From a virus, in IMG/VR virus record IMGVR_UViG_3300036944_000990, positions 42,807-106,806 of that record: a stretch of DNA of 64,000 nt; one strand, 5' to 3'. The notes under the pieces are model-generated. The model ran no database searches. It saw only the letters and a list, made by a program, of their open reading frames with translations, and was not told where the DNA came from. Position numbers and translations under genes: made by a program. Shown here in pieces: positions 793 to 40,859 of this stretch; position 1 is the stretch's first letter; each line of letters starts with the position of its first letter.

Positions 793-836
793 GCGGCATA
801 AAAGCCTACAGGGAGGCGTGAGCCTCCCTGTATGCC
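793..836 (-). terminator. Terminator after the lysis genes
   Basis: TACAGGGAGGC-GTGA-GCCTCCCTGTA (807-832), followed on the minus strand by GGCTTTTATGCCGC. Confidence 0.7.
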
Positions 837-837
837 C

Positions 838-1245: not shown

Positions 1246-1247
1246 GG

Positions 1248-1619: not shown

Positions 1620-1893
1620 TTTCAACCTCGGTCTGGTAACCAAGTTGCACATCAGTAAACTTGGTGGTGGTGTTAAACCAATCCTCGACCGATTCGCGAT
1701 CAATGCGCATTTGTTCACGCAGATCTTCCACATCCGCCGTCAGGTCTGAAACCTTCTGTTGCGAATCTTCAAGCGAGGACGTTAGTTCGTTGATGGTTTT
1801 TTCTTGACTGTAAATCTTCCACTGCGTCCAACTCACCACAGCGACGATCGCAATCATGAGTAGATTGCGAGGGTTAAGAAAGAACTTGGACAT
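1381..1893 (-). CDS. i-spanin (Rz-like)
   Basis: N-terminal TM (LLMIAIVAVVSW) followed by coiled coil; the ATG overlaps the ruvC stop (TAATG). Confidence 0.7.
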   Translation of the reverse strand: MSKFFLNPRNLLMIAIVAVVSWTQWKIYSQEKTINELTSSLEDSQQKVSDLTADVEDLREQMRIDRESVEDWFNTTTKFTDVQLGYQTEVENVLTKFRYELAVNAKKPEPQNTVASIRPDIASSAINGMWNAYASTQSLNGPPKPDPTGVPKKSTGTTPAGSRSVQPSNP

Positions 1894-2480: not shown

Positions 2481-2489
2481 AACTACCCC

Positions 2490-3362: not shown

Positions 3363-3450
3363 GTGGGGATAAAACCTTATCAGGTGAGACTCACATAATA
3401 GGGCATAAAATGTAATTTGGCATAGACGGGACCGAAGTCCCGTCAGATGG

Positions 3451-4038
3451 TTAAGCGTCAAGACTGGTGACTGGCGGTAACTGTTTGGTAGGACCAATCA
3501 AAGCCAAATCGGAACCGGTGGTACTGACAATACGGATATAAAACGAATCACCCCCACGCACCTTAGGAATGAAACGAGGTGAGTGTTCGGCAATCTGCAA
3601 TTCGATGGTGTAGTCGAAAGGTGCGTACATCGACTTTTGGAATGAATGTGTGTCAGAAAGTGTCTGGGTTGAGCTACCCGGAACCAATACGTCTTGGTTC
3701 TCAATCAAGACCCCATACGTCCCTAACAAGTGTGTCTTAATGGCACCCCAAGTCACAGGCCATTCCGAAGGGAAAAAGAACACAGGGCGTCCGTTGAAAA
3801 GAGTTTGCAGACTCTCTCGCCGATAACGAACCGAAGCTTCGTTCATATACCGACCGGGTTGCATCTGGTCAGTCAGCGTCCGTGCCCGAATGTTCACCAC
3901 CACATAGTCCCCATCCGCTTGGTAGCTCAAGGCAGTGTGGTCAGTGTCCAAGTCATGGTCATTCACCATGCTGTACAGATTCTCCAGCAGCGTCTTGGAA
4001 TCTAAACGCAATACTTGACTGATGGATAAAAGGCTCAT
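3451..4038 (-). CDS. Putative virion structural protein
   Basis: Shares a Y..RxxL..LF repeat with 4043..5272 and 54693..55211. Confidence 0.5.
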   Translation of the reverse strand: MSLLSISQVLRLDSKTLLENLYSMVNDHDLDTDHTALSYQADGDYVVVNIRARTLTDQMQPGRYMNEASVRYRRESLQTLFNGRPVFFFPSEWPVTWGAIKTHLLGTYGVLIENQDVLVPGSSTQTLSDTHSFQKSMYAPFDYTIELQIAEHSPRFIPKVRGGDSFYIRIVSTTGSDLALIGPTKQLPPVTSLDA

Positions 4039-4042
4039 GTGG

Positions 4043-5272
4043 TTATCTCTTGTAGTAAATCAGAAAACGACCGCCAAAGTACGTACAGTACTGTGGGTCC
4101 AAACGCACCACCCAGATCAGTGTAAGACGAGGATCGGGACTAGCTGGGTAACCAACGTTGCGTCCCAAATACTCCACCTCAGCATTGAACAGGTTCACTG
4201 GAGAAGGTGTAGGACTACATTGTGTTGTACCCTCAGGTAAACCCAAGATTCGATCCATAAACGTCAGATCTGGTAACGATGTTAAGACCGTACCTTCATA
4301 GAGCGCTTGGAAACCTTCCAGCTCCGGCGTACCATCCAACAATCCAGCCCACAACTCCGCAGGATACCGATATCCCTGTTCAGGGAATTCAGGTACCAAC
4401 TTAGTGACTTGGGCGTTGTAGTTAAGTGTGAGAGGACCCCTTACTTTGGTGTTGAGGGCCTCGTCCAATTCAACCTGTAGTACTCGACTGACTGTGAAAA
4501 CGTAGGGAGTAACTCCCAGATCGATAGCCCGCCCATTGAAGGTCACTTTCGCACCTTTAAGGTTAGCTTCGGCCGGGACAGAAGAATGAACCCAACTGTA
4601 GTTGGTCTCACCCACTTCGAAATAGACCCGACCCAATGCTTGATGAAGAATAGAATCGGCTGAGATATCACCCAACGGGATACGCTTGAGGTGATCTCCG
4701 TAAAAGCGACCGTCAGTAAAATGCTTACGGTGCTGAACGAAGTCACGCGTCTTACTGGGATCTATCAGTCTGCCGAAATCACTGACCACTGTCACTTGAT
4801 CCAACGCTTCTTTTTTAAGCAGTGTCAGCGTCACCTGACCCCACCACCGAAGTGAATAAGGGGCTGCCTTAAGTACATACCCGTAGGCGTTCTCTGCGGT
4901 GATCAGTTCGTTAACATAATCACTGCTGTCAAAGACGTAGCCGTAATGGTGACTCAACACCTGAATGACATCCGAGGTCTTACAAGGCAAGTCCATCTGA
5001 ATGGACAGTTGGGTATTGGCAAACAACTCCCCAAAATCAATGCGCTTATAAAAGAAGTCTACCGAACCCCGGTAGACCTGACCCATAAAGCTGTCATTGG
5101 GTTTGCGACCCGTCACCTGAATCATGGTCTCACGACCCACCAAGGCTTGGGGTATACCAAACTCCATGTGATCAGGCGCAATAGAGACCTGATTACTGTG
5201 AGTGATGATTCGGACCAACGCTTGTTGCGGAGTCAGACTCAACAACTCTTTAAAATCGAGGGCATCAATCAT
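4043..5272 (-). CDS. Putative virion structural protein
   Basis: YRGSVDFFYKRIDFGELF-type repeat domain. Start moved to MIDALD, which follows a terminator. Confidence 0.55.
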   Translation of the reverse strand: MIDALDFKELLSLTPQQALVRIITHSNQVSIAPDHMEFGIPQALVGRETMIQVTGRKPNDSFMGQVYRGSVDFFYKRIDFGELFANTQLSIQMDLPCKTSDVIQVLSHHYGYVFDSSDYVNELITAENAYGYVLKAAPYSLRWWGQVTLTLLKKEALDQVTVVSDFGRLIDPSKTRDFVQHRKHFTDGRFYGDHLKRIPLGDISADSILHQALGRVYFEVGETNYSWVHSSVPAEANLKGAKVTFNGRAIDLGVTPYVFTVSRVLQVELDEALNTKVRGPLTLNYNAQVTKLVPEFPEQGYRYPAELWAGLLDGTPELEGFQALYEGTVLTSLPDLTFMDRILGLPEGTTQCSPTPSPVNLFNAEVEYLGRNVGYPASPDPRLTLIWVVRLDPQYCTYFGGRFLIYYKR

Positions 5273-5284
5273 AAACCCACCCTG

Positions 5285-5309
5285 AAAAAAAAAGGCCTCC
5301 GAAGAGGCC
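5285..5309 (-). terminator. Intrinsic terminator
   Basis: GGCCTC-TTCG-GAGGCC followed by T9 on the minus strand. Confidence 0.8.
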
Positions 5310-5315
5310 CTGAGG

Positions 5316-7487
5316 TTAAATATCGAGATCTTCTGGTGGCGTGTCCGGATAACGGTATTCATCACTGGTACGGACCGGGAAGACGTCTTCCAACTCCTCC
5401 AACGGACGCACCGTCAGCGTGGCGTAGACAGACGGAATCGTCATGCGCACACGGCTGGTGTAGCCAGTTCCAGATGACATGTCCAGTGTTGGATCAAGTC
5501 GATCGGTGTGAAACTGGGTCGCTGAGGTGTCTGATTCGAACGTGGCGTCCGATAGATCCACGTACTCGGCATTGTAACCCTTACCGAACAGATCCTGAAC
5601 GTACACGTTACTTTGGTGAATGCGAGTCACCCCTTCACCAAGTCCTTGATAATCCCCCACCCGAATAGCCGGACAACCGACCACCGTGATGTTTTTACCT
5701 TGGAGTTCCGTGACCACTTGGATTGAATAGCTGCTAAGCTGGCGCAGCAAACGCACCATACTCTCTTGTAGGTCACTCAAACCCACAGACACCTTAAGAT
5801 CTGACCCTGTTGCAGTTGCCATCAGGTTGTTAGCCAGTAGATCAAACTCTTCACGGGACAAACCGTCCAATTCCAAGTTCTTAGCTTTCAACCAATCGGT
5901 GTAGTCCATACCACCGGCCAAGTCGTAGTGTACGTCTTGATACAGGTGATAAGCCACATTTTCAACTTGTCCACGAGTTACCATGTGTTCACGGAAGGCA
6001 ATGAAATCACTGTGTAGCTTCCACGCCTTATGAATCTCTTGGCACTTCTCGTAGAAAGCAGCGGTGGATATCACATCACCAATTACCGGTTGGTCTTCAC
6101 GCAGGTAATGAATCCATTCCGTGGGGACACGAGAGGGTTGCGCCAGCGCCCGCATCTCAGCTACCGAAGGAATCACAGGCTTGCGAACAAAGGTGGCTAC
6201 CACATCCGGGACTTGTTCCAACCGAACACCATGCGAGGCATTGTAGGCGTACAAGAACAGGATAAACGCTTCCTTAGCCGTAAACCACAAAGACTCACCA
6301 TTGGCTGGGTTGTCGAAGTTGGTCATGGCCAAATAGTTGCCTTCACACGCCCAACTGATCCAGTGGTTCAGTAGGACATCCCCTAACTTAACGCTAAAGG
6401 CTTCAGACCGATCCACCACCGAGGACTCCAACACTTTGGTTGGGAGTTCGCTGTGAGTGTGTCGTCCGTATTTGTGCGTAAGGTCTTGGAGCGCTTCAGC
6501 TTGGTAATGGACGTTGTTGCGAGTTACTGACACTTCTTTCTGGATCAACTCATTCGCCGAATAAATGTCGCGTACAGTACCGCTGACATACTTCGTCAGA
6601 TCAAAGCGTTTGGCGTTGATTGCCGGCAGTAATTTATTAGGCATCCCAGAAATATTGTGTTGCAGGCGATACTTAGCCAGCGGCAATAGGCGCTCTGTCA
6701 ACAGGTTCTCAACCAACCAGTCAAAGGTTTCTTGTTTACCAGCATTGCGGTTAATGTACTGGATGTTCCGATACAAAAACAACATCTGCTTTTTATTGAG
6801 GTTGTCGATGTAGCTGTCCAATTTACCGTTGGATGCTAGGTATTGTCTGATATGGAAACTGTGCACCTTTTCGGTTCGGCAATTGGCTAACCGAATGTTC
6901 AAGATGAACAGGGGAATGTTCATATAAAGGATGGCCAAGTTAGCGGCTGGATACAGATCATCCACCTTCGCATAGTCGGCTACATCCCAACGGACTTTCC
7001 ATCCATCGATTTTCTTTTGCAGCTCCGGAATCAGATTGGTTTCGTTGCTCTCAACCAGATTGGTGTCATAGCTGAGGATCTCTCCATCCCGTGCCGCAAT
7101 GGCTTGTTGGATATCGATGGGTTCCAAGATCCCTTGAATCAGATCGATCTGGTTCGGGTATTTACGCACCAGTTCTTTATAGAAACGTGTACCGGGCAAG
7201 TAACCACGCTTAGTGGCACGATGCTCGACCAGATTGGCCTTGGAGAACTCGATCATTTCACGAGTATCCAATGAGGTGACAAACATCCGGGTGTCGGTAC
7301 TATGGTACTCACCCGCCAAATTCAGGTAATACTTCCACGTTTCTGGTTGCTCTTCGAAGACTTCCGCTGCGCCTGAATCGCGAAAAAACTGGTTGATAGA
7401 ATTCGCCGTACTTTCGCTTTTGAGGACGATCGAGCGGGCGAGCAAGAGCACATCGTCGACATACAGCTTATAGCGTGCATTGGACAC
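5316..7487 (-). CDS. phiKZ-like virion structural (baseplate-type) protein
   Basis: LLLARSIVLK...PETWKYYLNLAGEYH N-terminus recognised from phiKZ-like genes divergent from the portal. Probable GTG start at 7487. Confidence 0.65.
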   Translation of the reverse strand: MSNARYKLYVDDVLLLARSIVLKSESTANSINQFFRDSGAAEVFEEQPETWKYYLNLAGEYHSTDTRMFVTSLDTREMIEFSKANLVEHRATKRGYLPGTRFYKELVRKYPNQIDLIQGILEPIDIQQAIAARDGEILSYDTNLVESNETNLIPELQKKIDGWKVRWDVADYAKVDDLYPAANLAILYMNIPLFILNIRLANCRTEKVHSFHIRQYLASNGKLDSYIDNLNKKQMLFLYRNIQYINRNAGKQETFDWLVENLLTERLLPLAKYRLQHNISGMPNKLLPAINAKRFDLTKYVSGTVRDIYSANELIQKEVSVTRNNVHYQAEALQDLTHKYGRHTHSELPTKVLESSVVDRSEAFSVKLGDVLLNHWISWACEGNYLAMTNFDNPANGESLWFTAKEAFILFLYAYNASHGVRLEQVPDVVATFVRKPVIPSVAEMRALAQPSRVPTEWIHYLREDQPVIGDVISTAAFYEKCQEIHKAWKLHSDFIAFREHMVTRGQVENVAYHLYQDVHYDLAGGMDYTDWLKAKNLELDGLSREEFDLLANNLMATATGSDLKVSVGLSDLQESMVRLLRQLSSYSIQVVTELQGKNITVVGCPAIRVGDYQGLGEGVTRIHQSNVYVQDLFGKGYNAEYVDLSDATFESDTSATQFHTDRLDPTLDMSSGTGYTSRVRMTIPSVYATLTVRPLEELEDVFPVRTSDEYRYPDTPPEDLDI

Positions 7488-7531
7488 GTCCAAGCCCCCT
7501 TTAGTGGATTTGAAAAGATAGGAGTGTGAAA

Positions 7532-10363
7532 ATGAGTCGAAGTCCCGATTCGAACGAGTTGGCGCAACTGGGGTTGTCAACCCAGGAAAAGCGCCACGAA
7601 CGCGTTAAGGCGTTCCGTCGTAACCCCACATCGGCAGCCGTGGTGAACAAACTGGTTCGGGAAAATCAAGGCCTCTATGACCGTGATACTCGGGCTAAAG
7701 ACCAGTTGAACGTTGGTGGGTACCTGCGCCGTACTTCTGACGAAACCGCAGCCAACGTTACTGACTCCAGCAACCTGTATCAACTGTTGCCTGACACCGA
7801 ACTGGCCGAGCAAATTCTCGTCAGCTCTATTCTGGCACCAAAAGACATGGTCAATGTGGAGTTGAACTTCAACGTCAACAGTCCAAAAATTCCCTTGGAG
7901 ATCTCAGGTCCGATGCTTGGCATCGTGGAAGAGTTCTTTACCAAGACCTATAAAATACCATCTCTTTTGCCGAAGATTTTGTCGGACGCGTTGTTTAAGC
8001 GCGGCAGCTACCCCATGTTGATTCTGCCAGAGAGTTCGATCGATGAGATCATTAACTCTTCAGGTCAAGTGGGTTTGGAAGACCTGTCTAACAACGACCC
8101 TTTCAAACTGTCGGTCGGTATTCTGGGTAACGCTTTGGATAGCGTGGGTCAAGCCATCCCTCGCCGCAAAACCAACGTATCGATGGAATCGGCTCGCGAC
8201 ATCCTGTCTACTCGGGTGGGTACTTACAACCCCTCTGTCAATGCCAAAGGCAAAGATAAAAACCGGGTAGATCTCAAGGTGTTGGTGAGCGACAACCCTG
8301 ACGTGCTTAAAGCACCCTTCCTGTACAGCCGTGTCCGTAGTCAAGCGGTGAGTAACCGGTTGGGCCTTTCGATGGAATCTCGTGCTGAACTCAACCGTTC
8401 CGACATCGAGGCTAGTTTCTACAAGCCACGTCAGTATCAATCCCGTGAAGTCGTAGGGTTGAAAACTGCAGCGCAGGTAGGTCGTCCTACGGTCGGTCAC
8501 CCGTTGGTGATGCGTTTGCCTTCTGAGAGCATCATTCCGGTCCACGTGCCGGGCTCTCCTGAAGAACACGTAGGCTATTTCGTCCTATTGGATGCCACAG
8601 GTAACCCGCTGAACAAAGCCAACAAAGCCGACTACTACAACGACTTGGGTCACAACCTTCAAGCTAACCGGGAACTGGCCAGTCAATTGATTGCCCAGTC
8701 GACGCGTGCGGTAGAGGGTTGGCGTGACGGCACCATCGACACCGCCGTCGATGAAGCCACACGAATGTACGCAACGGTCGTTGAGAATGACCTGATCTCT
8801 CGCCTGAAGAACGGGTTGTACAATGACACCGTAGAGATTGCACGACCGCTGGAAGTGTACCGGATCATGCTGGCGCGCACCTTTGCCAACATGACTACAC
8901 AGTTGTTGTATGTACCGGTGGAACTCGTCAGCTACATTGCTTTCGATTACAACCAGTACGGTGTGGGTCAATCCTTGTTGGAAAACAACAAGATCCTGGC
9001 TTCTTTGCGTGTGAGTATGATGCTCGCCAACACCATGTCGGCCATCGACAACTCGGTGGCGCACACGGGCCTTAACATCACGCTGGACCCTGATGATCCC
9101 GATCCCTCTACCACGGTAGAGAAATTGGTTCACAACTACGTCAATACGCGACGGGCAAGTTACCCCTTGGGTGCTTCCAGTCCTGTTGACATCATCAACT
9201 TCCTTCAAAACGCCGGGGTCGATATTCACGTCAGTGGTAACCCTGCGTATCCGGAAACTCGGATGGAGGTTGAAGACCGGGGTCGGAGCATCGTAGAGCC
9301 TAACAACGAGCTGGAAGAGTCGTTGAAAAAGCGCTACCTGATGTCGTTGGGTCTGTCACCTGAAACTGTGGACAATAGCTACAACGTGGAGTTCGCGACG
9401 TCCATCGTGTCCTCTAACCTGCTGTTGACCAAACGTGTTGTGTTGTATCAAGACATGTTTACTGAGATGCTGTCGGATTTCTTCCGTAAGTACATCAGTC
9501 AGTCGGGTGCCTTGCGAGATGCTCTACTCAAGTGTATTGCGTCTGCTCAACAAACGGCGGCTGAACAAGAAGCCAAAGAGAAAGAGGGACAAAGTCCTGC
9601 TGAAGAGAAAGCTCAAGCTTCCAACCAAGGACCTGAACTTCAAACGGATGGTAAAGAGCAGAACGAACAACACCTTGAGTGGTACCGTGAGTTTGTGATG
9701 GCTCTGTCTGTGTCCCTACCACGCCCTGACAACATCACCATCGAGCGTCAGCTGGAAGCATACGACAAGTATGTAGAAGCGCTGGAGAAGGTGGTAGATG
9801 CCTACATCAACAGTGAGTTCTTGGACGGCACTGCGTTGGGTGAACAGGCCGACCAAGTCGATGTTATCAAATCTGCCATTCTTGCGTACTTCAAACGTAA
9901 GTGGCTGAACGAGAACAACGTCATGCCTGAGTTGCTTGACTTGGTAACCTTCAAAGATGAAAAGCATCCGATGTTGGACCTTCTGGAAGTGCACAACGAT
10001 CACATCACTGCGATCGGTGCCTCTATCCAAGGGTACATGGTTAAAGTGGCAGAAGCTCAGACTAAGCGTGATGAACTGAGCCGCGCCATTGAAGCCGACA
10101 AAGGCATCAAGTTGGGATCGGGTGACGAGTACGGTAGCGACAGTTCGTCTGATGACGACAGCGAAAGCTCGGACGATGATTTCGGAGACGATGATGACAT
10201 GGGCGGAATGGACGACGACATGGGCGGTGAAGACGAAGAGTTGGATGCTGAACCTGAAGCTGAAGCCGAACCTGAAGAAGAGGAAGCAGAAGAAGAATCT
10301 GATGCGGATCTCGAATCAACGGGCGGTGTTGCAGGGGATGGGGTAATCATTCAACCTGAGTGA
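7532..10363 (+). CDS. Portal protein (phiKZ gp129-like)
   Basis: LPDTELAEQILVSSILAPKD and LPSESIIPVHVPGSPEEHVGYFVLLD...G; opposite-strand position next to the head block; S-x-E protease motifs; acidic tail; AGGAG RBS. Confidence 0.75.
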   Translation: MSRSPDSNELAQLGLSTQEKRHERVKAFRRNPTSAAVVNKLVRENQGLYDRDTRAKDQLNVGGYLRRTSDETAANVTDSSNLYQLLPDTELAEQILVSSILAPKDMVNVELNFNVNSPKIPLEISGPMLGIVEEFFTKTYKIPSLLPKILSDALFKRGSYPMLILPESSIDEIINSSGQVGLEDLSNNDPFKLSVGILGNALDSVGQAIPRRKTNVSMESARDILSTRVGTYNPSVNAKGKDKNRVDLKVLVSDNPDVLKAPFLYSRVRSQAVSNRLGLSMESRAELNRSDIEASFYKPRQYQSREVVGLKTAAQVGRPTVGHPLVMRLPSESIIPVHVPGSPEEHVGYFVLLDATGNPLNKANKADYYNDLGHNLQANRELASQLIAQSTRAVEGWRDGTIDTAVDEATRMYATVVENDLISRLKNGLYNDTVEIARPLEVYRIMLARTFANMTTQLLYVPVELVSYIAFDYNQYGVGQSLLENNKILASLRVSMMLANTMSAIDNSVAHTGLNITLDPDDPDPSTTVEKLVHNYVNTRRASYPLGASSPVDIINFLQNAGVDIHVSGNPAYPETRMEVEDRGRSIVEPNNELEESLKKRYLMSLGLSPETVDNSYNVEFATSIVSSNLLLTKRVVLYQDMFTEMLSDFFRKYISQSGALRDALLKCIASAQQTAAEQEAKEKEGQSPAEEKAQASNQGPELQTDGKEQNEQHLEWYREFVMALSVSLPRPDNITIERQLEAYDKYVEALEKVVDAYINSEFLDGTALGEQADQVDVIKSAILAYFKRKWLNENNVMPELLDLVTFKDEKHPMLDLLEVHNDHITAIGASIQGYMVKVAEAQTKRDELSRAIEADKGIKLGSGDEYGSDSSSDDDSESSDDDFGDDDDMGGMDDDMGGEDEELDAEPEAEAEPEEEEAEEESDADLESTGGVAGDGVIIQPE

Positions 10364-23125: not shown

Positions 23126-23647
23126 CTAAAGGACAGTCTTAAGGACAAACCCATCGAAGAAGTTTTTAAGCACGATTGGATCAGTTTGAAGGTGTACTTT
23201 AGCAGCGCTAGGTTTAGTGAATCTTCCGCCGGTGAAGGTCCGGTGTAGATCCACGCCACCTCGAATTAATGTGAGTTTCCACTTAGCCACTTTTAGTACT
23301 TGTAAAGCTTCGTAGAAAATGGAGTCGACTCGTGCCCGGCTGATCACCTTCGGTCCGGTCGGAGTCATGAGTTCTGGTTTCTCACACAGTTTGTCGTGTA
23401 AGGCTACCGCTTGGTCGTATTCACCGTGACGCGGTAAGAGTGACCAGACAATGCGTGGGATATCGGCTCCATTGGTCAGAAAACCCAATTCGACGTCAAC
23501 CCATTCGTCACTGCCCTTAGTACCCACATAATACCGGAATGGTACACACACCCGCCAGAAATCTCCGGCCAGTATGAAACTTGCATTCTCGTCATAGGCA
23601 AACGCCGTGCGGTTACTCAGATTGGTGAATCCAACAAAAGTATCCAT
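23126..23647 (-). CDS. DUF1353 family protein
   Basis: GFLTNGADIPRIVW...P..GEYDQAVALHD...R..VDSIF..AL. Start moved past the terminator. Confidence 0.75.
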   Translation of the reverse strand: MDTFVGFTNLSNRTAFAYDENASFILAGDFWRVCVPFRYYVGTKGSDEWVDVELGFLTNGADIPRIVWSLLPRHGEYDQAVALHDKLCEKPELMTPTGPKVISRARVDSIFYEALQVLKVAKWKLTLIRGGVDLHRTFTGGRFTKPSAAKVHLQTDPIVLKNFFDGFVLKTVL

Positions 23648-23748
23648 AAGCTTCCTTGTGAAGGCTAACGAAAAAAAAAAAGGACGAGGCCCTCTCATAA
23701 AATAGGCGGCATAGACGGGGCCGTAGCCCCGTCTAAACCAAGTAGCAA

Positions 23749-23886
23749 CTATTTCGCCAAGAGGTACAACCAATACCCAAGGTTCGCTAGCAGGAATGCG
23801 CAGTTACCCACCAGAAAGTTCCGGTCGGCTAGAAAGGCCCTACGACGCTCCTGTTGCAGCACCAGCGCTCTGTCGAACACTACCAT
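23749..23886 (-). CDS. Small 45-aa protein, absent from the ORF track
   Basis: TAAGGAGTAAGCC-ATG; MVVFDRALVLQQERRRAFLADRNFLVGNCAFLLANLGYWLYLLAK. Confidence 0.6.
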   Translation of the reverse strand: MVVFDRALVLQQERRRAFLADRNFLVGNCAFLLANLGYWLYLLAK

Positions 23887-32808: not shown

Positions 32809-32820
32809 CCACTTGGCCTC

Positions 32821-32893
32821 TAAGGGACTTCGGTCCCTTAGAGTGCTCTTTATGCCGGCATAAAACCCATGAGGCCCGAAGGCCTCATGGGTT
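32821..32893. terminator. Convergent double terminator around the palindrome TTATGCCGGCATAA
   Basis: TAAGGGAC-TTCG-GTCCCTTA and AACCCATGAGGCC-CGAA-GGCCTCATGGGTT. Confidence 0.8.
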
Positions 32894-32897
32894 CGCC

Positions 32898-33521
32898 TTA
32901 GGCTGCCGGAGCTTCCGGTTGAGCAAAGGTCCAGCTGATGGCGTTGAACGCAACATCGTCACCCAGCTCTGCAGCAGTTCGCAGTTGTTTCTCGATACCG
33001 TGGCGGTATGCGGTGAAGCCAGCCAGCGCCGGACTGTACACTGCATCATTAGCCAGGATACGCGAGACCAGGTCTTCGAAACCGTCGCCAACATTTGCAG
33101 CCACGCGCCCTTCGTTCAGTTCCACCAGGAACGGAACTTCAGGAGCATCACCTACACGACCACCATCGATCCATGCTTGGTACGCACGGGCTTCAGTGAC
33201 TTGTAGGGTCCACGTGTGTGTTTCAGCAGCGGGGTAATCGACATTGAGGACAGCCACCGCCTGATCGTAGTCAGCATTCAGACGACCCAGTTGGATGGTC
33301 AGACGCTCGGCCAGCGGCTTGGCCAGATACTCTTCTTCCGGAGTTGGGATGTGAGGTGCTTCTACAGCGATCGGATTGCCTTCGGCATCTGCATCGAGCA
33401 CCTTACCGGCAGCCAACTCGATCATCAGTGCGGTAGCAACTTCCTCGGTCAACAGAACCGCATCGTCACCCACCGGCAGGTTGAACAGGCCTTTACGAGA
33501 AGGCGAGAAATAGGTATTCAT
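32898..33521 (-). CDS. Tail fibre assembly chaperone (Tfa-like)
   Basis: YFSPSRKGLF...DDAVLLTEE...GKVL.ADAEGNPI...P.PEEE N-terminus; YP..E..TW..Q..EA. Confidence 0.75.
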   Translation of the reverse strand: MNTYFSPSRKGLFNLPVGDDAVLLTEEVATALMIELAAGKVLDADAEGNPIAVEAPHIPTPEEEYLAKPLAERLTIQLGRLNADYDQAVAVLNVDYPAAETHTWTLQVTEARAYQAWIDGGRVGDAPEVPFLVELNEGRVAANVGDGFEDLVSRILANDAVYSPALAGFTAYRHGIEKQLRTAAELGDDVAFNAISWTFAQPEAPAA

Positions 33522-33544: not shown

Positions 33545-34288
33545 TTACGGGGTGTACTTGATCCACAGGTCGCCGTCTTTACCGTCAGCAGCGACAGGGT
33601 CAACGGTCGACACGAAGATGTTGGCCGTCGAGGCAGTACCGAGGTTCAGTGCAGTTTGAACGTCACTGATTACCTGTGCTTTGGTGCGACCTTCAAGCTT
33701 AGCCGAATCAGCTGCCTGGGCAGTGGCGTTAAGCTTACCGGCCAGGTCGTCAGCCAGTGCAGCTTCGGCAGCCGCGACAGCTTCAGTTACAACCTGAGCT
33801 TTGCTCGAACCTTCCAACTTCTGAGAGTTTACAGCCGTAGCAGTAGCGTCCAGTTTCTGGCCGACCAGAGTGGTCAGTTCGGTGATCACATCCGGGTTGT
33901 TCTGTAGGGCTTCGGCCAGCTCAGCGATGGTGTTCAGGGCTTCCGGGGAAGCACCGATCAGCTCGTTGACAGCCGACTCGATAGCCGCTTTGGCCGACAC
34001 AGCGGTGATGTACTTGACATCGTCAGTGCCCGCAACAGCTTCAGCAACCGAGGCCTTGGCGGCCACGAAGTCATTGAACCCTTGTTGCAGAGTGGCGAGG
34101 TCAGCACCCGAAGCCAGATCAGCCAGCAGAACGGCCAGTTCCAGTTCACCCACTTTGTATTGACCGAAGTCATCAGTCTTATCGACCTTGGACCCCAGCG
34201 ATGCTGCGACGGAGGCAAGTGCCCCGTCTACTTTTTCCGACACCCAAGTCGAAAATTCGGCAAAGCCGAAAAAACGTTTATCAAACAT
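33545..34288 (-). CDS. Short tail-fibre-related protein (KRFFGF family)
   Basis: SPEALNTIAELAEAL fibre motif, A.DS.KLEG repeats, terminal DPVAADGKDGDLW. Confidence 0.7.
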   Translation of the reverse strand: MFDKRFFGFAEFSTWVSEKVDGALASVAASLGSKVDKTDDFGQYKVGELELAVLLADLASGADLATLQQGFNDFVAAKASVAEAVAGTDDVKYITAVSAKAAIESAVNELIGASPEALNTIAELAEALQNNPDVITELTTLVGQKLDATATAVNSQKLEGSSKAQVVTEAVAAAEAALADDLAGKLNATAQAADSAKLEGRTKAQVISDVQTALNLGTASTANIFVSTVDPVAADGKDGDLWIKYTP

Positions 34289-34429: not shown

Positions 34430-35209
34430 TTAATCCTTTCTGATTAAACGGATGAACCAAGCTGCTGTATCGACTTCACCCTTTTTCATCACGGTGGTCC
34501 ATGAGCGAGGATGTGCGTGGTGGTTGTTGTGTAAACCACAAGCACCAAAACTCAACAAGTGCATGCTCGGGGAGTTTTGAGAATGGTCGGGTGTGTCGAA
34601 ACTACGGTAGTTCAGAGGTGCCTTAGCATGAAGCATGTAGTTTTGGACCGTAGAAAGAAAGGGTCCCAACGCCCAAGGCAAAAGTACAATGAACATCAAC
34701 CCATTGATCCCCGCCAACCAATACCACAGACACGCCCACCCCAACATCCAAAGAACGTAGTATTGGTGCAGTGATTTGTGGATAGGGTCACGAGCCAAGT
34801 AACGAACAGAATGTAACGTTCCCGTGTAAGGATAACGCCACACCAACAACTCCCAGAACTTCGAGTATTGTGCACTGTGTGGATCTTTCTCGGTATCCGA
34901 GTATTGATGATGGGCGGCGTGGATCATCGCCCAACCCATGGTCGATCCAGTTCCCGGTACCACACTGGTCAGTACTGCCAATAACCACTCAACAGGTTTG
35001 CTAAGTTGATACGCCCCATGAGTACAGAAGCGATGGGCAAAGGCTTCGATCAAACAAATGTTGAAAAACGCCACCACACCCAAAGTCGCCCACAACCACT
35101 GGTAATTCAGTTGTGTTGTGTAGTGAAGAACCGGTAGTAGTGTCACTACTAACAACACCTGCAGCGGCATGAACTCGCCCCGCGAACGAGTGTATTCCCA
35201 AAGTTTCAT
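34430..35209 (-). CDS. Membrane fatty acid desaturase family enzyme 3
   Basis: His boxes HRFCTH, HAAHH(QYSDTEKDPHS), NYMLH, HNNHH; TM segments. Confidence 0.88.
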   Translation of the reverse strand: MKLWEYTRSRGEFMPLQVLLVVTLLPVLHYTTQLNYQWLWATLGVVAFFNICLIEAFAHRFCTHGAYQLSKPVEWLLAVLTSVVPGTGSTMGWAMIHAAHHQYSDTEKDPHSAQYSKFWELLVWRYPYTGTLHSVRYLARDPIHKSLHQYYVLWMLGWACLWYWLAGINGLMFIVLLPWALGPFLSTVQNYMLHAKAPLNYRSFDTPDHSQNSPSMHLLSFGACGLHNNHHAHPRSWTTVMKKGEVDTAAWFIRLIRKD

Positions 35210-35219
35210 ATCAACCCCC

Positions 35220-36143
35220 TTAAGACAAAAGTGTCACAAATTGTTCGAGGTACGATTCTTGGTTTGGGATTGCTCGATTAAAAGCAACCCGCAAATGATG
35301 CGTACCGTTGTAGGAGATCACTTGGAGTCTTCCCATCTGATTCTTCTTTAGAAACTGTACCAGTTCAGTAGGTTCAAAGTGACTGGAACCTATCGGGAAA
35401 GAGCCTACAAAGAAGTTTCCAATCTTCTCACTCAAACCAAACTTCATGATCAAACGAGTGAAGTTTTCGTGACTGATGTCGAGCGAGAACTTCCCGTCTT
35501 TATTAGACCCTAAAGCATAGAGCGAGTAGTGTCCCCAATAGTCCTCACACCCTTCTACAAAGCGCGTGGTGATGATGTTAGGGTTATCCAATACCGTACA
35601 AGTCACTTGAGCGAGGTAGTCCTGTACACGCATCCCTAGGGCTTTAGCTTGACGCAAGTAACCGGTACCAATGGGGATGCTGTAGGTGTTGGCTAAACCG
35701 ACCTCCCCTTCAAAGACAAAGGGTCTCAGTTCCATTGGTCCCGTCGGTTGTATTTTCGGTAAAGGTTGGTTGGATACATAAGTCCCTACCTCACCAGTTC
35801 GGGCAATGTGGAACAGTTCACGCGTGGTCTTCATGAACGTCCAACCATCAACAAACTCGTGGGACAAACCAATCCAAAATCCGTTATCGTCCTCGGTGAC
35901 CGATAAGCAGGTTGGAATCTGTTGGTGGAGGTTACCGTGACCTTGTGTTACCAACACCCGATCATGTTCCACGACTTTACCATTGACCACACAGGCTTTA
36001 AGAAGTGGGATGTGATGAGTCAGTTCGTCCACCGCTTCTTGCATCAGGTTGCGGTCACATGGGAATAAAGGGACGTTCAAACTGCTGTACATCATCGCCT
36101 TTCCATCATTAAGAAAGGCTTTCTGAAGTAGGTTCAATTTCAT
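35220..36143 (-). CDS. Standalone condensation-domain / CoA-dependent acyltransferase
   Basis: LNLLQKAF (C1-like), DRNLMQEAVDELTHHIPLLK (C2-like), LSHEFVDGWTF..TTRELF (HxxxDG, nt 35844-35861). ATGA overlap with the upstream gene. Confidence 0.7.
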   Translation of the reverse strand: MKLNLLQKAFLNDGKAMMYSSLNVPLFPCDRNLMQEAVDELTHHIPLLKACVVNGKVVEHDRVLVTQGHGNLHQQIPTCLSVTEDDNGFWIGLSHEFVDGWTFMKTTRELFHIARTGEVGTYVSNQPLPKIQPTGPMELRPFVFEGEVGLANTYSIPIGTGYLRQAKALGMRVQDYLAQVTCTVLDNPNIITTRFVEGCEDYWGHYSLYALGSNKDGKFSLDISHENFTRLIMKFGLSEKIGNFFVGSFPIGSSHFEPTELVQFLKKNQMGRLQVISYNGTHHLRVAFNRAIPNQESYLEQFVTLLS

Positions 36144-36883
36144 CGTTTGATTAGCCTGATAAACCACGCCCCTGGGTCAATTTCGCCTTTTTTCATGGCC
36201 ATGTCCCAGCGGTTGGGGAAAGCGTGGTGGTTGTTGTGTAGACCCTCACCCCCAAACAAAAGTGCTAAAAGTTTGGAGTTGCGTGAGTCATCATTAGTGT
36301 TCCAACTCTGGTATCCGAACCTATGGACCCAGTCGAGCAAAACTGTTTTGCGTAATACCTGAGTACACGCCGTTGGGATCGCCCACAAATAGATCAGAGC
36401 CTCCCACGAGATCAAGGCTAGAACACCGGCCGTTACTAGAGGATACAAAAGGTAGTACTTTTGAATACGCATCGCAACAGGGTCGTTTAGAAACTGTTTG
36501 AGTAACCGTCGGGGGATTGTGAGGTTCAGTTTCTTAGCGTTGACCAAACCCCAACCGCGATAATGGTTGTGGGGGTCGTTCGGGGTGTCTGAATGTTTGT
36601 GGTGCTCGCGGTGGATAGCAATGCTGATATAGGGATGGAGTCCTCCGGCGGCACAGATAGCCCACACCATAAACTCCCGCCAGAATGGACTGGTTTCAAA
36701 TGAACGGTGTACAAAGTACCGATGAGCCCCACAGGCGACGCCGCAGACCCAATACACTTGAAAGGCCATAAAACTCCCCAGTACCCATAAGGCACTGGGG
36801 TGAATTACGCAGAACAGACTGATTCCCATTGCCAGCACAGCTACCAGAACCGAAGCCCTGCCACTGAACTGTAGATATTTCAT
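36140..36883 (-). CDS. Membrane fatty acid desaturase family enzyme 2 (Delta9/DesC-like)
   Basis: GAHRYFVHRSF, HREHHKHSDTPNDPH, WVHRFGY, GEGLHNNHH. Confidence 0.92.
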   Translation of the reverse strand: MKYLQFSGRASVLVAVLAMGISLFCVIHPSALWVLGSFMAFQVYWVCGVACGAHRYFVHRSFETSPFWREFMVWAICAAGGLHPYISIAIHREHHKHSDTPNDPHNHYRGWGLVNAKKLNLTIPRRLLKQFLNDPVAMRIQKYYLLYPLVTAGVLALISWEALIYLWAIPTACTQVLRKTVLLDWVHRFGYQSWNTNDDSRNSKLLALLFGGEGLHNNHHAFPNRWDMAMKKGEIDPGAWFIRLIKR

Positions 36884-37668
36884 TTACGGATCACCTTGAT
36901 AATCCAATAAGCTGGATCGAATTCCCACCACTTCTCACGAAGGTTAACGGCCGTTTGGTCGTGATGGTGGTTGTTGTGCCAACCTTCACCCCCGGAGATG
37001 AGTGATACGAACCACCAGTTGTGACTCAAGTCAGGTGTTTCGTGGTTACGGTAACCCAGTCCCGGTACGTGTCCTGACCAAACCACAAACCGCAAAGTCA
37101 TGTGACACATACCACCTGGAACGAGGTACAACCAGAAGAGTGCAGTCAGAGGATCAAGTCCTGCAAGTACACCCACCGAGGTCAGACCAGCTGCCAACAG
37201 CGCTACGATCAAGAAGTAATACTTGATAGTCAATCCGTGCATCGGGTCACTTGCCAACATCTTAAGCAACATGCGGTTGCCTTTGAAGTTTTCGTGGCTG
37301 AAGGGTGAGACTCCTGTGCGGATAAAGTCGATATACGGATCATCGTCTTCATCGGCATGTTTGTGGTGCTTGATGTGCAGATCAGCCCATACACAAGGCG
37401 GACCTGTCAAGGCACCTACGCAACTGACTGCCATCACCCACTGCCAGAAACGACTGGTTGTGAACATCCGGTGAGAGAAATAACGATGCGCTCCCACCAC
37501 CAATCCCATCACTTGCAAAAACTGCCAGATAGCAAGGGTTGCAAACAACAGTCCCCAACTCATGCCAAAGACGTACGCCACCAAGGGCGCTGTAAGGACA
37601 CAGGCTGCGGTCAACCGATTAACGACTTTAAGTCGTGAGTAGGTAATCATGAAAGGTGGGGTTTGCAT
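36880..37668 (-). CDS. Membrane fatty acid desaturase family enzyme 1 (Delta9/DesC-like)
   Basis: GAHRYFSHRMF, HIKHHKHADEDDDP, WSGH..GYRN, GEGWHNNHH, WWEFDP. Confidence 0.92.
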   Translation of the reverse strand: MQTPPFMITYSRLKVVNRLTAACVLTAPLVAYVFGMSWGLLFATLAIWQFLQVMGLVVGAHRYFSHRMFTTSRFWQWVMAVSCVGALTGPPCVWADLHIKHHKHADEDDDPYIDFIRTGVSPFSHENFKGNRMLLKMLASDPMHGLTIKYYFLIVALLAAGLTSVGVLAGLDPLTALFWLYLVPGGMCHMTLRFVVWSGHVPGLGYRNHETPDLSHNWWFVSLISGGEGWHNNHHHDQTAVNLREKWWEFDPAYWIIKVIRK

Positions 37669-37671
37669 GCG

Positions 37672-38310
37672 TTACTCCTGAAGGCTTTCGACGGTGGCTA
37701 AACTCTCCACCGGAACGTTGGTACATTGGGCTTTGACTTCTTCTACAGTTGCTTCATAAACATAGACCAGGAACGCATTGTCTTGTCCGGTATTACGGAA
37801 GCTGTAGTCTTGGGGTTTAGTCAAACGAAGGTGTTTGATGCTATTGAACACCCCGCCGTCATTTACCTGAAGAGCCCCTTCTACGATAAAGACATTTTGC
37901 TCCATCTCTCGAGGGGTGATCACACACGACTCACCGGGAGCCAACGCGTAGTTCTTCGACAGGTAGAGCTTGGCCATCGGGTCTTGTGCATTGATGCACA
38001 TAAACCGATTGCGATCCTCCATCCCCAGCAGATGAAAACTACCCTTGATGGTCACACGACTCTCATCGCCACCGTCACCACGACTCCGAATGAATTCGGG
38101 TGTAACGGTAGAGCCGACTTTAAAAGCCCCTTCGATAAAGGCGTTGAATCGGTAGGTGTTGATACCTGCATCGCTGGAACCCAAAGTCGCTTGTGCGGGC
38201 ACGTCTACAGGTACTGCGGCGATCTTGTTTTTTTCCAGAACCAGTTCGAACAAGTCAAAGCCATTTACGCGAGTGACGTTCCAACCGTTACGGGTATAGG
38301 TTGTACTCAT
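37672..38310 (-). CDS. Beta-rich cupin/pirin-like protein
   Basis: LAPGESCVITPREMEQNVFIVEGALQVND resembles the pirin C-terminal cupin strand pattern. No clear metal His pair. Confidence 0.45.
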   Translation of the reverse strand: MSTTYTRNGWNVTRVNGFDLFELVLEKNKIAAVPVDVPAQATLGSSDAGINTYRFNAFIEGAFKVGSTVTPEFIRSRGDGGDESRVTIKGSFHLLGMEDRNRFMCINAQDPMAKLYLSKNYALAPGESCVITPREMEQNVFIVEGALQVNDGGVFNSIKHLRLTKPQDYSFRNTGQDNAFLVYVYEATVEEVKAQCTNVPVESLATVESLQE

Positions 38311-38547
38311 TTAAATCTCCTCCGTGACTTCTCGAGTCACTTGGGTTTCTTCCAATCCTTCGTTGTGATTGGTGGCGGGTTGATGAGGCAGACCGCAGTT
38401 GAACAGAACCGCATAGGCCATCCCTTGAAGGAATGCTTCGTCTGGAGGGAGTGCACCCACATCCATAGGCTCGTAAAAGATCTCCACATTCCCATGCAGT
38501 GTTTCTACCACCACACTCTTTTCATTACGACTGACAAAATTAAACAT
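38311..38547 (-). CDS. Hypothetical 78-aa acidic protein
   Basis: Its stop abuts the next ATG (TAAATG). Confidence 0.6.
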   Translation of the reverse strand: MFNFVSRNEKSVVVETLHGNVEIFYEPMDVGALPPDEAFLQGMAYAVLFNCGLPHQPATNHNEGLEETQVTREVTEEI

Positions 38548-38557
38548 GGAGTCACCT

Positions 38558-39109
38558 TTATGGGAGGAGTTTAACGACAGTGGATTTATTGAGGATAGCG
38601 CTTCTTACAGTCGTAAATTGTGCCGCGGTTATAGCAACAGAAAAGACAATTGTACTGGTGCCAGTTTTAGTGTTTGTAACAACTGTAAAGGCTCCTGAGA
38701 ACGTCACCCCACCAATTACCAGTTTGGTCGCGTAGGACCAAGCAGGTCTCGCTCCACCCGTATTGACTTCAAAAGACACACTGTAGCTACCGGCATAATT
38801 CATTACCGAACAAGTCGAAATGGCGTAGCCAGATAACGTGGTCGGTGAAACCGAGCCGTACGTGGCTGAGCCGAAACCCACATTCTCATACCCAGATGTG
38901 GGTACATAGGAAACGGCACCCAAAGTGATTTCAGCCAGACTGTTGTTAACGGCCTTGCCGCGCAACATCGACAAGTTCACCTGACCACTGAGTGCACCTA
39001 CTAGTTGACGAATAGAGGCATCACTCAAATTTAATTGTTGATTGGCAGGACGACCCAATTCAGTATTGATCATACTGAATGTGATCGGACCGGAAGTAGG
39101 CAATGCCAT
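38558..39109 (-). CDS. Putative tail-fibre tip adhesin
   Basis: MALPTSGPITFSMINTELG N-terminus of the kind that follows S74-type fibres; S/T/G beta-rich C-terminus. Confidence 0.6.
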   Translation of the reverse strand: MALPTSGPITFSMINTELGRPANQQLNLSDASIRQLVGALSGQVNLSMLRGKAVNNSLAEITLGAVSYVPTSGYENVGFGSATYGSVSPTTLSGYAISTCSVMNYAGSYSVSFEVNTGGARPAWSYATKLVIGGVTFSGAFTVVTNTKTGTSTIVFSVAITAAQFTTVRSAILNKSTVVKLLP

Positions 39110-39122
39110 GGTGTATTACCTC

Positions 39123-39159
39123 GCAATAAAAAAGGACTGAGTCGTAGCGGCTCAGTCCT
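39123..39159 (-). terminator. Terminator between the fibre gene and the adhesin/desaturase cassette
   Basis: AGGACTGAG-CCGCTACGA-CTCAGTCCT followed by TTTTT on the minus strand. Confidence 0.7.
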
Positions 39160-39170: not shown

Positions 39171-40859
39171 TTATTTTTCGAGTTGGCTTTGGAGTTCGGT
39201 AAGTTGCACTTTGATTTGCTCAACCGACAGCACCAATTGATCGAGTTTCGATCGATCATTGTCAGCCAAGTCCGCCAGCTCATTGATCGCCATTACCACG
39301 TACGGAAGTGTGCGGTGGTATTTCATTGTGAGGTAGTACTCACCCGATCTTGAGACATTCGGTTCCCCGTCGTCATCGTAATCAAAAGGTGCCAACTCAA
39401 CAATTTCAGGCGCAACGACTTGCCATTCTTGAGCACTGAAACCCACCTCAGGTTTGAGGGGGTCGTAGCCAAACCCTGCGGCCAATTCGTTGGCCGTATA
39501 GCGATAGCCCGTGATGGTACGTAGACTTTCCAAAGCCCCTTCAATCGGCGTCATGTTCTCTTTCAGACGTTCGTCGGAGTAGAAGCCACTGATCTCACCT
39601 GTGGCTGCAATGTTACCCTCAACGTAGAAACTCTTAGACCCGTACACACGAACCCAAGTAGTATCCGACATATGGATGCCGCCACCATAGGTCTCGCTAT
39701 ACCAACCTGTTGCTCCGGTGGAACGGAACCAGTTCCCCGTATAGAAAGTCGAAGCCGTGATGTTACCGTTTACGGTACCACCCGACGTACTGAACTTGGC
39801 ATCCAGAGCTGCTTGAAGACCCGATACAGTCGAGATCGCTTGTGTACCCGTATGGTTACTACGGCTCAACAATGCAGCGTCTGTGGAGTTAACAGTGGCG
39901 CCGGCTGAGATACCATTGAGCTTGGCTTTATCGGCCGCACTTAACAACCCAGCCGCCGCAGTAGTGGCTCCAGGCAAACTGGCATTCGTACCCGTGGAGC
40001 TGGTTATAGTACCGGCAGTAGCACCTGTGGTATAGCCCAAATCGGTAGGTACGTTGACTTGGGCGCCAGCAGCAATACCGTCCAGTTTGGTTTTATCCGC
40101 AGAGCCTGTCCACCATGCAGCAATTGCCTGACGTACCCGTTGTGCAGTCCAAGCACGACGCGTTGTAGCCACACCTGTCTCTGCTTCAGACTGGGTGATC
40201 GTAGTCGCTGACCACTCACGGGCATCTGTCAACCGTGTATCCGTCTTGTCGACTTTAGAAGCCAACTGGTTGGTGATGGTAGTTGCAAAGTTGGGATCAT
40301 TACCCAATGCCGTTGCCAACTCATTCAACGTATTCAACGCATCAGGAGAAGAATCTACCAGCGCCGAAATAGCTGCATTTGTGAAGGCTTTGTACTCAGC
40401 TTCGATTGTCGCCAGTTGTTTACCATCAAGCGCGTCAGCATCCAATCCTGAGTTAGGACCGTCCACTGTCAACAGCTTAGCCAAAACGTCACCAGCGGTA
40501 TAGCCAGATGCATTGAGTTTGGTGTTCAATGCGGCCTGAAGAACGTCAGGCTGTACCGCAGTGTCGGCCTTAACGCCTTGTGCGGCAGTTGCAAATTCGG
40601 TACGGGCCGTCACATCCAACTTAGTGTCTAGGTTGGCTGCTGCGATTGCCTCAAGAATAATCTGGGCTTTTGTTTTACCGTCAAGCAAGGATGAATCCAC
40701 AGCTTTTCCAGCAATTGCCAAGAAAGTCTCAAGGGCTTCTTGTTTCGTGTGTACACTGGTTTTATCAGCTTTAAGGTTGAGGGCATCCATGACCCCCGTG
40801 ACTTGGTCACGCACCCACATGCTGAAATCAGCAAACCCAAAATAACGTTTATTGGTCAT
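39171..40859 (-). CDS. Tail fibre with C-terminal peptidase S74 intramolecular chaperone
   Basis: PDALNTLNELATALGNDPNFATT; NWFRSTGATGWYSETYGGG; FYSDERLKEN...GFSAQE...KY. Confidence 0.88.
   Translation of the reverse strand: MTNKRYFGFADFSMWVRDQVTGVMDALNLKADKTSVHTKQEALETFLAIAGKAVDSSLLDGKTKAQIILEAIAAANLDTKLDVTARTEFATAAQGVKADTAVQPDVLQAALNTKLNASGYTAGDVLAKLLTVDGPNSGLDADALDGKQLATIEAEYKAFTNAAISALVDSSPDALNTLNELATALGNDPNFATTITNQLASKVDKTDTRLTDAREWSATTITQSEAETGVATTRRAWTAQRVRQAIAAWWTGSADKTKLDGIAAGAQVNVPTDLGYTTGATAGTITSSTGTNASLPGATTAAAGLLSAADKAKLNGISAGATVNSTDAALLSRSNHTGTQAISTVSGLQAALDAKFSTSGGTVNGNITASTFYTGNWFRSTGATGWYSETYGGGIHMSDTTWVRVYGSKSFYVEGNIAATGEISGFYSDERLKENMTPIEGALESLRTITGYRYTANELAAGFGYDPLKPEVGFSAQEWQVVAPEIVELAPFDYDDDGEPNVSRSGEYYLTMKYHRTLPYVVMAINELADLADNDRSKLDQLVLSVEQIKVQLTELQSQLEK

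Follow-up and report, generated by a model that had tools for sequence, protein, structure and literature searches.

Within a 64,000-nt stretch of viral DNA (positions 42,807 to 106,806 of the IMG/VR virus record IMGVR_UViG_3300036944_000990; the whole stretch is referred to below as the window), genes for three fatty acid desaturases, an acyltransferase-like protein and a cupin-like protein are packed together inside a tail-fibre module, which raised the question of why a tailed phage should carry such a set of enzymes beside its receptor-binding genes. The answer that we favour, with a probability slightly better than even (about 0.55), is that these genes form an operon for acyl-chain tailoring, specific to phages and genetically coupled to the receptor-binding module. 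The gene identities and the location in the fibre module proposed in a preliminary description of this DNA were supported by the analysis presented here, and its interpretation as a whole was partly supported.

The locus consists of seven packed open reading frames on the minus strand, from 38558-39109 down to 34430-35209, that encode, in this order, an adhesin-like protein of 183 amino acids (aa), a 78-aa protein, a 212-aa bicupin, the desaturases Des1 and Des2, a 307-aa condensation-fold protein and the desaturase Des3. The preliminary description had reported contiguous genes with tight junctions, and the junctions were found to be as reported, i.e. a 10-nt gap between the 183-aa and 78-aa genes, a TAAATG junction (0-nt gap) between the 78-aa and 212-aa genes, a 3-nt gap between the latter and Des1, ATGA overlaps between Des1 and Des2 and between Des2 and the 307-aa gene, and a 10-nt gap between the 307-aa gene and Des3. 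The second ATGA overlap depends on the ATG start at 36143 of the 307-aa gene, which fits the 307-aa homologues, whereas the GTG at 36167 does not. A Shine-Dalgarno-like motif lies 5' of each of the seven starts, and the layout shows translational coupling of the block. When the genes were compared with those of an 85%-identical relative (locus L004), all of them appeared to be under strong purifying selection, with ratios of nonsynonymous to synonymous substitution rates (dN/dS) of 0.03-0.08; in two genes dS was saturated, and the corresponding proportions of differing sites were about 0.10 (pN) and 0.76-0.85 (pS). The open reading frames of the cassette are therefore real, constrained genes.

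The three desaturases, Des1 (262 aa, 36880..37668, minus strand), Des2 (247 aa, 36140..36883, minus strand) and Des3 (259 aa, 34430..35209, minus strand), matched the Pfam family PF00487 (FA_desaturase) with 57.4, 48.8 and 53.6 bits (E values of 2.5e-15, 1e-12 and 3.4e-14), respectively, all of them over the cut-off of 29.7 bits. As initially noticed, each of them has a complete set of histidine boxes of the HRxxxH/HxxHH/HNNHH type (HRYFSH, HIKHH and HNNHHH in Des1; HRYFVH, HREHH and HNNHH in Des2; HRFCTH, HAAHH and HNNHH in Des3), and the His-box residues are invariant across 12 Des2 orthologues. Transmembrane-like segments are present in Des1, and a crude hydropathy scan, made with no topology predictor, detected hydrophobic 19-residue segments in each of the desaturases, the other four proteins having none. 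Residues 4-241 of Des2 matched the structures of mouse and human stearoyl-CoA desaturase 1 (SCD1; 4ymk/4zyo) with an E value of 2.5e-14, and the three proteins reached only 52-67 bits against the NCBIfam DesA equivalog NF049918, whose cut-off is 400 bits. Judged by these matches, Des1-3 are membrane di-iron desaturases of the SCD/Delta9 type that are related to bacterial DesA and lie outside that equivalog.

The three desaturases are about 30% identical to one another, and a maximum-likelihood tree resolved them into three orthologue classes with support values of 100/100 for Des1 (10 rows), 100/99 for Des2 (13 rows) and 100/100 for Des3, Des1 and Des2 being sisters and Des3 standing apart. 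In a pattern-seeded scan of the genomes of 185,579 species, the closest cellular homologues of Des2 among the matches listed were at most 34% identical, and a tblastn search with Des1 revealed no genuine phage homologue in 50,697 cultured-phage records. A match in a record named Acinetobacter phage MD-2021a (CAKLQH020000002.1, 48237-62899) was rejected, since the region is bacterial chromosome with trpB, trpC, btuB, baeSR and a gene for a 390-aa desaturase; this gene content suggests that the phage label of the record is wrong or that host DNA is included in it. A short, related desaturase (P0060) was also observed in a different packed operon, at positions 149-9749 of a 26.6-kb contig (L100), together with two SPASM/radical-SAM enzymes, a protein with a weak Asp_Arg_Hydrox match, a dienelactone hydrolase and a B12-binding radical-SAM enzyme.

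The gene located between Des2 and Des3 (35220..36143, minus strand) had been read as an HxxxDG acyltransferase, and the predicted structure supports such a fold. An AlphaFold2 model of the 307-aa protein, built on ten family members, had a predicted local distance difference test score (pLDDT) of 93.3 and showed a complete two-lobed fold of the condensation/chloramphenicol acetyltransferase (CAT) type, with a Foldseek match in the PDB at an E value of 1e-14 and a probability of 1.0. In VIA-align comparisons, all 307 of its 307 residues were aligned with AzeD (8s6l; Z 23.1, root mean square deviation (rmsd) 3.2 A), and Z scores of 21-23 were obtained with condensation and cyclization (C/Cy) domains of nonribosomal peptide synthetases (NRPS), 20-22 with lipo-initiation starter C domains and 18.5 with PapA5. 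The motif SHEFVDGW contains H95, D99 and G100, which are invariant in 10 members that are 26-86% identical, and the family profile weakly matched the same motif in NRPS condensation and epimerization (C/E) domains (E 0.0048). The protein thus modelled is a stand-alone, minimal condensation-domain (CAT-superfamily) acyltransferase-like protein. It shares its two-lobed CAT-like fold and HxxxDG motif with PapA5 (1q9j), the starter C domains CDA-C1 (4jn3/5du9) and RzmA-Cs (7c1l), and AzeD, at Z scores of 18.5-23.1 and rmsd values of 3.2-3.7 A, but its sequence falls about 110 residues short of the length of any of them and shares only 8-14% identity with them, the first His of HHxxxDG is replaced by Ser, the genome encodes no carrier protein to partner it, and the protein forms a phage-only family of its own. 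No Pfam, NCBIfam or PHROG family, including Condensation, WES_acyltransf and PapA_C, matched any of the 10 members. The family is tiny, with 9 representatives among 1.84 billion proteins, on phage-like contigs only, and BFVD contained one similar viral structure, from an algal giant virus. Among the entries returned by these searches, the 307-aa protein has the smallest complete condensation-domain fold and offers a compact scaffold for enzymology.

The gene that had been called cupin-like (37672..38310, minus strand) encodes a soluble 212-aa protein, whose cupin fold was likewise borne out by the predicted structure, in the form of a bicupin. Its AlphaFold2 model (pLDDT 87.9) matched bicupins in Foldseek with E values of 4.5e-07 to 1e-05, gave VIA-align Z scores of 11.3 with PA5104/HutD and 10.3 with BacB, and showed, in Atlas comparisons, template modelling scores of 0.55-0.61 with HutD/Cupin_2 over about 165 residues. 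No Pfam cupin family matched it. The known proteins HutD/PA5104 (1yll, 5fcc), BacB (3h7j), AerE (5zbe) and the pirin-like YhhW share with it two fused double-stranded beta-helix barrels of about 200 residues (Z 9.7-11.3); in contrast to these bicupins, the phage protein has no conserved His/Glu metal site and has invariant Arg, Asn, Glu and Tyr residues instead. None of the 37 invariant columns in an alignment of six members (34-93% identity) is a His, and the protein therefore appears to be a bicupin without the usual cupin metal site. The family comprises 16 clusters among 5.8 billion proteins, those on judgeable contigs being phage-like, and was not matched in the 50,697 cultured-phage records. 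It is a phage-only family, and its gene always lies directly upstream of the enzyme genes.

The block lies between two paralogous fibre genes, as originally proposed on the basis of KRFFGF N termini. The upstream one (39171..40859, minus strand) encodes a 562-aa tail fibre with a KRYFGF N terminus and a C-terminal S74 intramolecular-chaperone domain (Pfam Peptidase_S74, 1.6e-10), and it matches Shufflon_N (5.6e-07) and many PHROG tail-fibre families as well. The downstream one (33545..34288, minus strand), also matched by PHROG tail-fibre families, has a KRFFGF N terminus and encodes a shorter fibre of 247 aa if counted from M28; the start is most likely at 34288 (M28) and not at 34369, given that the L004 orthologue starts at M28. 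The two fibres are 29% identical. The last gene of the unit (32898..33521, minus strand) encodes a 207-aa tail-fibre assembly protein (phrog_188, 6.5e-08).

The first gene of the block (38558..39109, minus strand) encodes the 183-aa adhesin-like fibre accessory, in which the N-terminal 55 residues or so are conserved and include invariant Lys and Ser, and the C-terminal remainder varies. This gene had been counted as a member of the cassette; it does precede the enzymes in all loci described below, but its N-terminal domain also adjoins tail-fibre genes in 21 cultured-phage records without desaturases (tblastn; the neighbourhood was inspected in the N4-like Vibrio phage BUCT194, where the gene overlaps the stop codon of the fibre gene). 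The protein is therefore part of the fibre apparatus rather than a pathway enzyme. In the T2/S16-type fibre tip, gp37 with a cleaved C-terminal chaperone is combined with the gp38 adhesin, and the phage locus resembles this arrangement in that a chaperone-ended fibre precedes a small protein whose N-terminal part is conserved and whose C-terminal part varies. The likeness to gp38 consists of gene order, conservation pattern and protein-language-model features (nearest Gp38_N adhesin clusters, 0.84-0.87, which is to be taken as a lead only), whereas six members of the 183-aa family did not match the Gp38_N hidden Markov model of Pfam even at an E value of 1, nor any other Pfam family. A lipid A acyltransferase annotation (PagP) downstream of a homologue in Vibrio phage ValKK3 (L028:3501-4601) was discarded, as it had no Pfam support (0 families at E 0.01).

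The conserved small protein of 78 aa (38311..38547, minus strand), which has an acidic C terminus and whose gene always adjoins the adhesin-like gene in either order, could not be matched to any family or fold and lacks both a conserved Cys cluster and a carrier-protein motif. In one comparison it was unlike the product of the gene that follows the adhesin homologue in BUCT194, and a complex prediction for the 183-aa and 78-aa proteins gave a score of 0.01 with a pLDDT below 50 for the partner, which speaks neither for nor against a complex. The gene of about 75 aa, a constant neighbour of the adhesin-like gene in the loci described below, is probably also part of the fibre apparatus, BUCT194 being the one enzyme-less phage covered by the comparison. 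With the adhesin and probably this gene assigned to the fibre, the enzyme set proper consists of the bicupin, the desaturases and the acyltransferase.

Related loci were recovered with Des2 and bicupin homologues as handles, and the homologues were found to share a conserved neighbourhood rather than to be scattered. Besides the window, the same block was located after an S74 fibre gene in 13 loci from about seven lineages, with identities down to 40-45% for Des2 and 34-36% for the bicupin. Every locus has the same order, in which the S74 fibre gene comes first, followed by a 71-115-aa gene and a 156-201-aa adhesin-like gene (in either order), the bicupin gene and the enzyme genes. The window, L004 and L023 have Des1, Des2, the acyltransferase and Des3 after the bicupin; L005, L015, L017, L008 and L026 have Des1, Des2 and the acyltransferase (L006 and L007 carry the same Des2 protein as L005); L010 and L027 have Des2, the acyltransferase and Des3, the acyltransferase being the first of them in L027; L025 has Des2, the acyltransferase, Des3 and a fourth desaturase; and L011 and L024 have Des1 and Des2 only. 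The set of three desaturases seen in the window, which the preliminary description had set beside the three-desaturase cores of polyyne clusters, is thus not the conserved state: the loci carry two to four, most of them two, and the bicupin and the Des2 class are the only universal components. Apart from the window, Des3 occurs in 6 of the 13 loci. The acyltransferase is present in 11 of the 13 loci, and since L011 and L024 do without it, it is not obligatory. Within 8 kb on either side, no other gene of the window was common to most loci; a DUF1353 gene that follows the cassette in six loci was rejected as a member of the unit, because it lies 11 kb off in the window (23126-23773) and one complete carrier (G004) does not have it.

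The window derives from a 131.5-kb IMG/VR virus contig that is 47% complete according to CheckV. Its large genes, which code for a 729-aa major head protein, virion proteins, a polymerase-family protein (phrog_2943) and DnaB, were matched by phiKZ-type families, and its capsid protein has its closest cultured counterparts in Xanthomonas jumbo phages (43% identity); by its gene content, the carrier is an uncultured giant, phiKZ-like phage. No match to the cassette DNA was detected in the 50,697 cultured-phage records, and defence-system models gave no match. Of the other carriers, G002 and G003 have complete genomes of the phiKZ-like type, with a capsid protein that shares only 39% identity with that of the window, and the genome of G004, likewise complete (108 kb, with terminal repeats), has no capsid gene of the phiKZ type. 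As this last phage is among the carriers, the block crosses phage lineages as a unit, and it stays together beside the fibre and adhesin genes across lineage boundaries even where the flanks have changed and its internal order has been reshuffled.

The search for partner proteins gave no match for AMP-binding enzymes (PF00501), PP-binding carrier proteins (PF00550) or thioesterases (PF00975) in G000-G004, i.e. the contig of the window and four other carrier genomes, three of which are 100% complete, and none for rubredoxin (PF00301) in G001-G004, the contig of the window not having been searched for rubredoxin; no 2Fe-2S ferredoxin is encoded in the carrier phages either.

The limits of the transcription unit were approached by RNA folding of the intergenic stretches, with 200 shuffles each. 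A terminator-like hairpin (39127..39159, minus strand), with a 9+2-bp stem followed by U6, lies between the 562-aa fibre gene and the 183-aa gene, the first of the cassette (-18.8 kcal/mol, z -2.86, 1 of 200 shuffles as good), and another hairpin, followed by U10, was found upstream of the 562-aa fibre gene (z -2.85). There was no significant fold between Des3 and the next fibre gene (z 0.27), and a strong double hairpin (32816..32897, minus strand; -53.4 kcal/mol, z -7.0, 0 of 200 shuffles as good) ends the minus-strand unit, separating the fibre-assembly gene from convergent plus-strand ribonucleotide-reductase genes. A pattern scan found the second of its hairpins on the plus strand, and the element is probably a bidirectional terminator. 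From this map, the seven genes, the short fibre gene and the assembly gene look like one unit between terminator-like elements. Scans for sigma-70 promoters and simple terminators gave counts at or below chance, the sigma-70 scan not being suited to the promoters of this phage type. Contigs from RNA-labelled libraries partly covered the cassette at a depth of 2-6, and a DNA origin of these contigs is possible. One run (X17), labelled with one organism and possibly RNA, contained 55% of the sampled words of the cassette as short, near-identical contigs, a match that could stem from a culturable host or an infected culture.

According to the acyl-chain tailoring reading, the genes would be translated as one coupled block late in infection, the timing being suggested by the fibre context. 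The desaturases, with their predicted membrane segments, would insert in the host inner membrane and would draw electrons and acyl chains from the host, since genes for ferredoxin, rubredoxin, a carrier protein or an acyl-activating enzyme were not found in the phages. The existence of three conserved classes, combined in sets of two to four, suggests that the paralogues may place successive or differently positioned unsaturations in one acyl chain. The fold and the invariant motif of the HxxxDG enzyme point to a transfer of the modified acyl group from a host thioester, either acyl-acyl carrier protein (acyl-ACP) or acyl-CoA, to a hydroxyl or amine acceptor, and the bicupin without a metal site might act as a non-redox helper, e.g. 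as an isomerase or as a substrate- or acceptor-binding subunit. The favoured acceptor would be a lipid or glycolipid of the host envelope, the surface met by the co-inherited fibre and adhesin. In other phages, receptor-modifying or receptor-blocking genes adjoin receptor-binding genes, and it is by analogy with them that an action on envelope lipids is preferred. Modification of such an acceptor could, as a speculation, block superinfection or keep progeny from sticking to debris. In our ranking of the possible reasons for the fibre linkage, action on an envelope lipid comes first and acylation of the adhesin or fibre second, with mere co-transfer as the null hypothesis.

Nevertheless, several observations weigh against this reading. 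Product, substrate and acceptor are inferred beyond what fold and family tell, and the role proposed for the bicupin is only weakly inferred. The C-terminal part of the adhesin varies while the enzymes are conserved, and this variation, together with the two loci (L011 and L024) that carry no acyltransferase, counts against a strict match between enzymes and receptor. The fibre gene and the cassette are parted by the terminator-like hairpin, the contigs from RNA-labelled libraries cover the cassette thinly, may be DNA and are no proof of transcription, and the fibre linkage could be a co-transfer of neighbours without any functional tie.

The alternative that survives best, although we consider it unlikely, is that these are auxiliary genes for membrane fluidity, which would introduce a Delta9 double bond into host membrane lipids in the way of the cyanophage desaturases, their neighbours and the fibre linkage being incidental. 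Previous descriptions of phage desaturases concern single auxiliary genes with a role in adjusting the membrane fluidity of the host. The viral fatty acid desaturases (vFADs) of cyanophages (Roitman et al. 2017/2018) are single genes with Delta9 activity on C16 lipids (PMC5776448), and viral desaturases have also been reported from cold brines and Lake Baikal. The proteins studied here are of the same Delta9/SCD type and, like the cyanophage vFADs, are phage-borne members of PF00487 with three His boxes that would use host reductant and host acyl chains. The habitats also fit, in that the same DNA occurs in shale-gas, subsurface, wastewater, sludge and soil metagenomes, with at least part of the stretch in 11 studies, two of them possibly its source. 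However, no locus has a single desaturase; there are always two to four paralogues of three anciently separated classes, which always accompany the phage-only bicupin and, in 11 of 13 loci, the phage-only condensation-fold enzyme. The operon, whose enzymatic activities are predicted, also differs from the cyanophage vFADs by its link to a fibre/adhesin module, and its carriers are phiKZ-like and other non-cyanobacterial phages. Its flanking genes change from locus to locus, whereas its position next to the fibre and adhesin genes does not, and the tblastn search of cultured phages mentioned above yielded no genuine phage homologue of Des1.

A more elaborate version of the pathway, in which a poly-unsaturated, possibly acetylenic or conjugated, acyl group made from host fatty acids is attached by the condensation enzyme to the gp38-like adhesin or fibre tip or to a host surface lipid recognised by the fibre, is doubtful in that full form. 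If true, this would make it the first acylation pathway encoded by a virus and coupled to receptor binding, with two of its enzyme families confined to phages.

Less likely still is a lipidation of the virion itself, in which the condensation-fold enzyme would acylate the adhesin-like protein, the 78-aa protein or the fibre and thereby create a lipid-anchored receptor-binding tip. The starter C domains CDA-C1 and RzmA-Cs, which are among the closest structures (Z 20-22), N-acylate an amino group from a fatty acyl thioester, the enzyme genes adjoin the S74 fibre, adhesin-like and 78-aa genes in 13 of 13 loci, and the adhesin N-terminal domain has invariant Lys and Ser residues. The conservation of this domain, however, does not need lipidation to explain it, since the same domain stands beside fibres in many enzyme-less phages; moreover, no known lipidation motif is present, and two loci have no acyltransferase.

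It is also improbable that the enzyme block is hitch-hiking only, i.e. that it is cargo in an exchangeable fibre region with a function unrelated to adsorption or to the virion. Fibre regions are hot spots for exchange and cargo, the block sits between the fibre and lysis genes in several loci, and the hairpin described above separates it from the fibre gene. Set against this is the tenacity of the association: the acyltransferase may precede or follow the desaturases, the 75-aa and 180-aa genes may trade places and the flanks may be replaced, yet all 13 loci are free of insertions between the fibre/adhesin pair and the enzymes.

The comparison with bacterial polyynes, which had been drawn from the three desaturases of the window, fared worst. 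Bacterial polyynes require three cooperating desaturases (PMC9828172), and the conserved polyyne cassette has seven genes, for a jamA-type acyl-AMP ligase, a jamB desaturase, a jamC carrier protein, two more desaturases, a thioesterase and a rubredoxin (PMC8406139). The jamABC genes and the cay, pgn, col and ccn clusters resemble the phage operon in that several membrane desaturases of the same superfamily are encoded together, presumably to act on one acyl chain; the phage operon differs from such polyyne/alkyne cassettes in having no thiotemplate parts and a variable number of desaturases, with a condensation-fold enzyme and a bicupin instead. A PF00487 search of 61 genomes of the family (Oxalobacteraceae) of a Janthinobacterium metagenome-assembled genome led to three loci, of which the one inspected (L102) contained an aminotransferase and a cupin and neither ligase nor carrier protein. 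A polyyne or alkyne natural product, with conjugated triple bonds made by the desaturase triad as in caryoynencin or protegencin and released or coupled by the acyltransferase, is very improbable despite the three desaturases of the window, since acyl-AMP ligase, carrier protein, thioesterase and rubredoxin, the defining partners, are absent from three complete carrier genomes and most loci have two desaturases.

Full-text literature searches found no paper on an operon of this kind. To the lipid-desaturase genes of phages it adds two new phage-only protein families, those of the 307-aa protein and of the bicupin, and the desaturase classes may have new regiochemistry. A multi-enzyme operon for acyl tailoring would imply that dedicated lipid chemistry, linked to adsorption or to the cell surface, is part of the repertoire of tailed phages and, as the phage is widespread, its product could matter ecologically.

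Three loci showed further enzyme genes near the block. In L025 (10192-13063), a co-oriented, packed extension encodes the fourth, very divergent desaturase, a 191-aa protein of unknown function, a small Cupin_2 fragment, an Asp_Arg_Hydrox protein (1.9e-27) and a pantoate-beta-alanine ligase (1.2e-66). The Asp_Arg_Hydrox family of Pfam includes LpxO and OlsC, which are bacterial acyl hydroxylases of lipid A and ornithine lipids, and pantoate-beta-alanine ligase (pantothenate synthetase) makes a precursor of the CoA/ACP cofactor, so that both enzymes fit an acyl-thioester lipid chemistry and favour the tailoring reading. In the two loci without acyltransferase (L011:8768-16744 and L024:8753-16744), a dense block downstream of DUF1353, with a Cupin_2 protein, three radical-SAM-like genes and several unknowns, may constitute a second enzymatic island.

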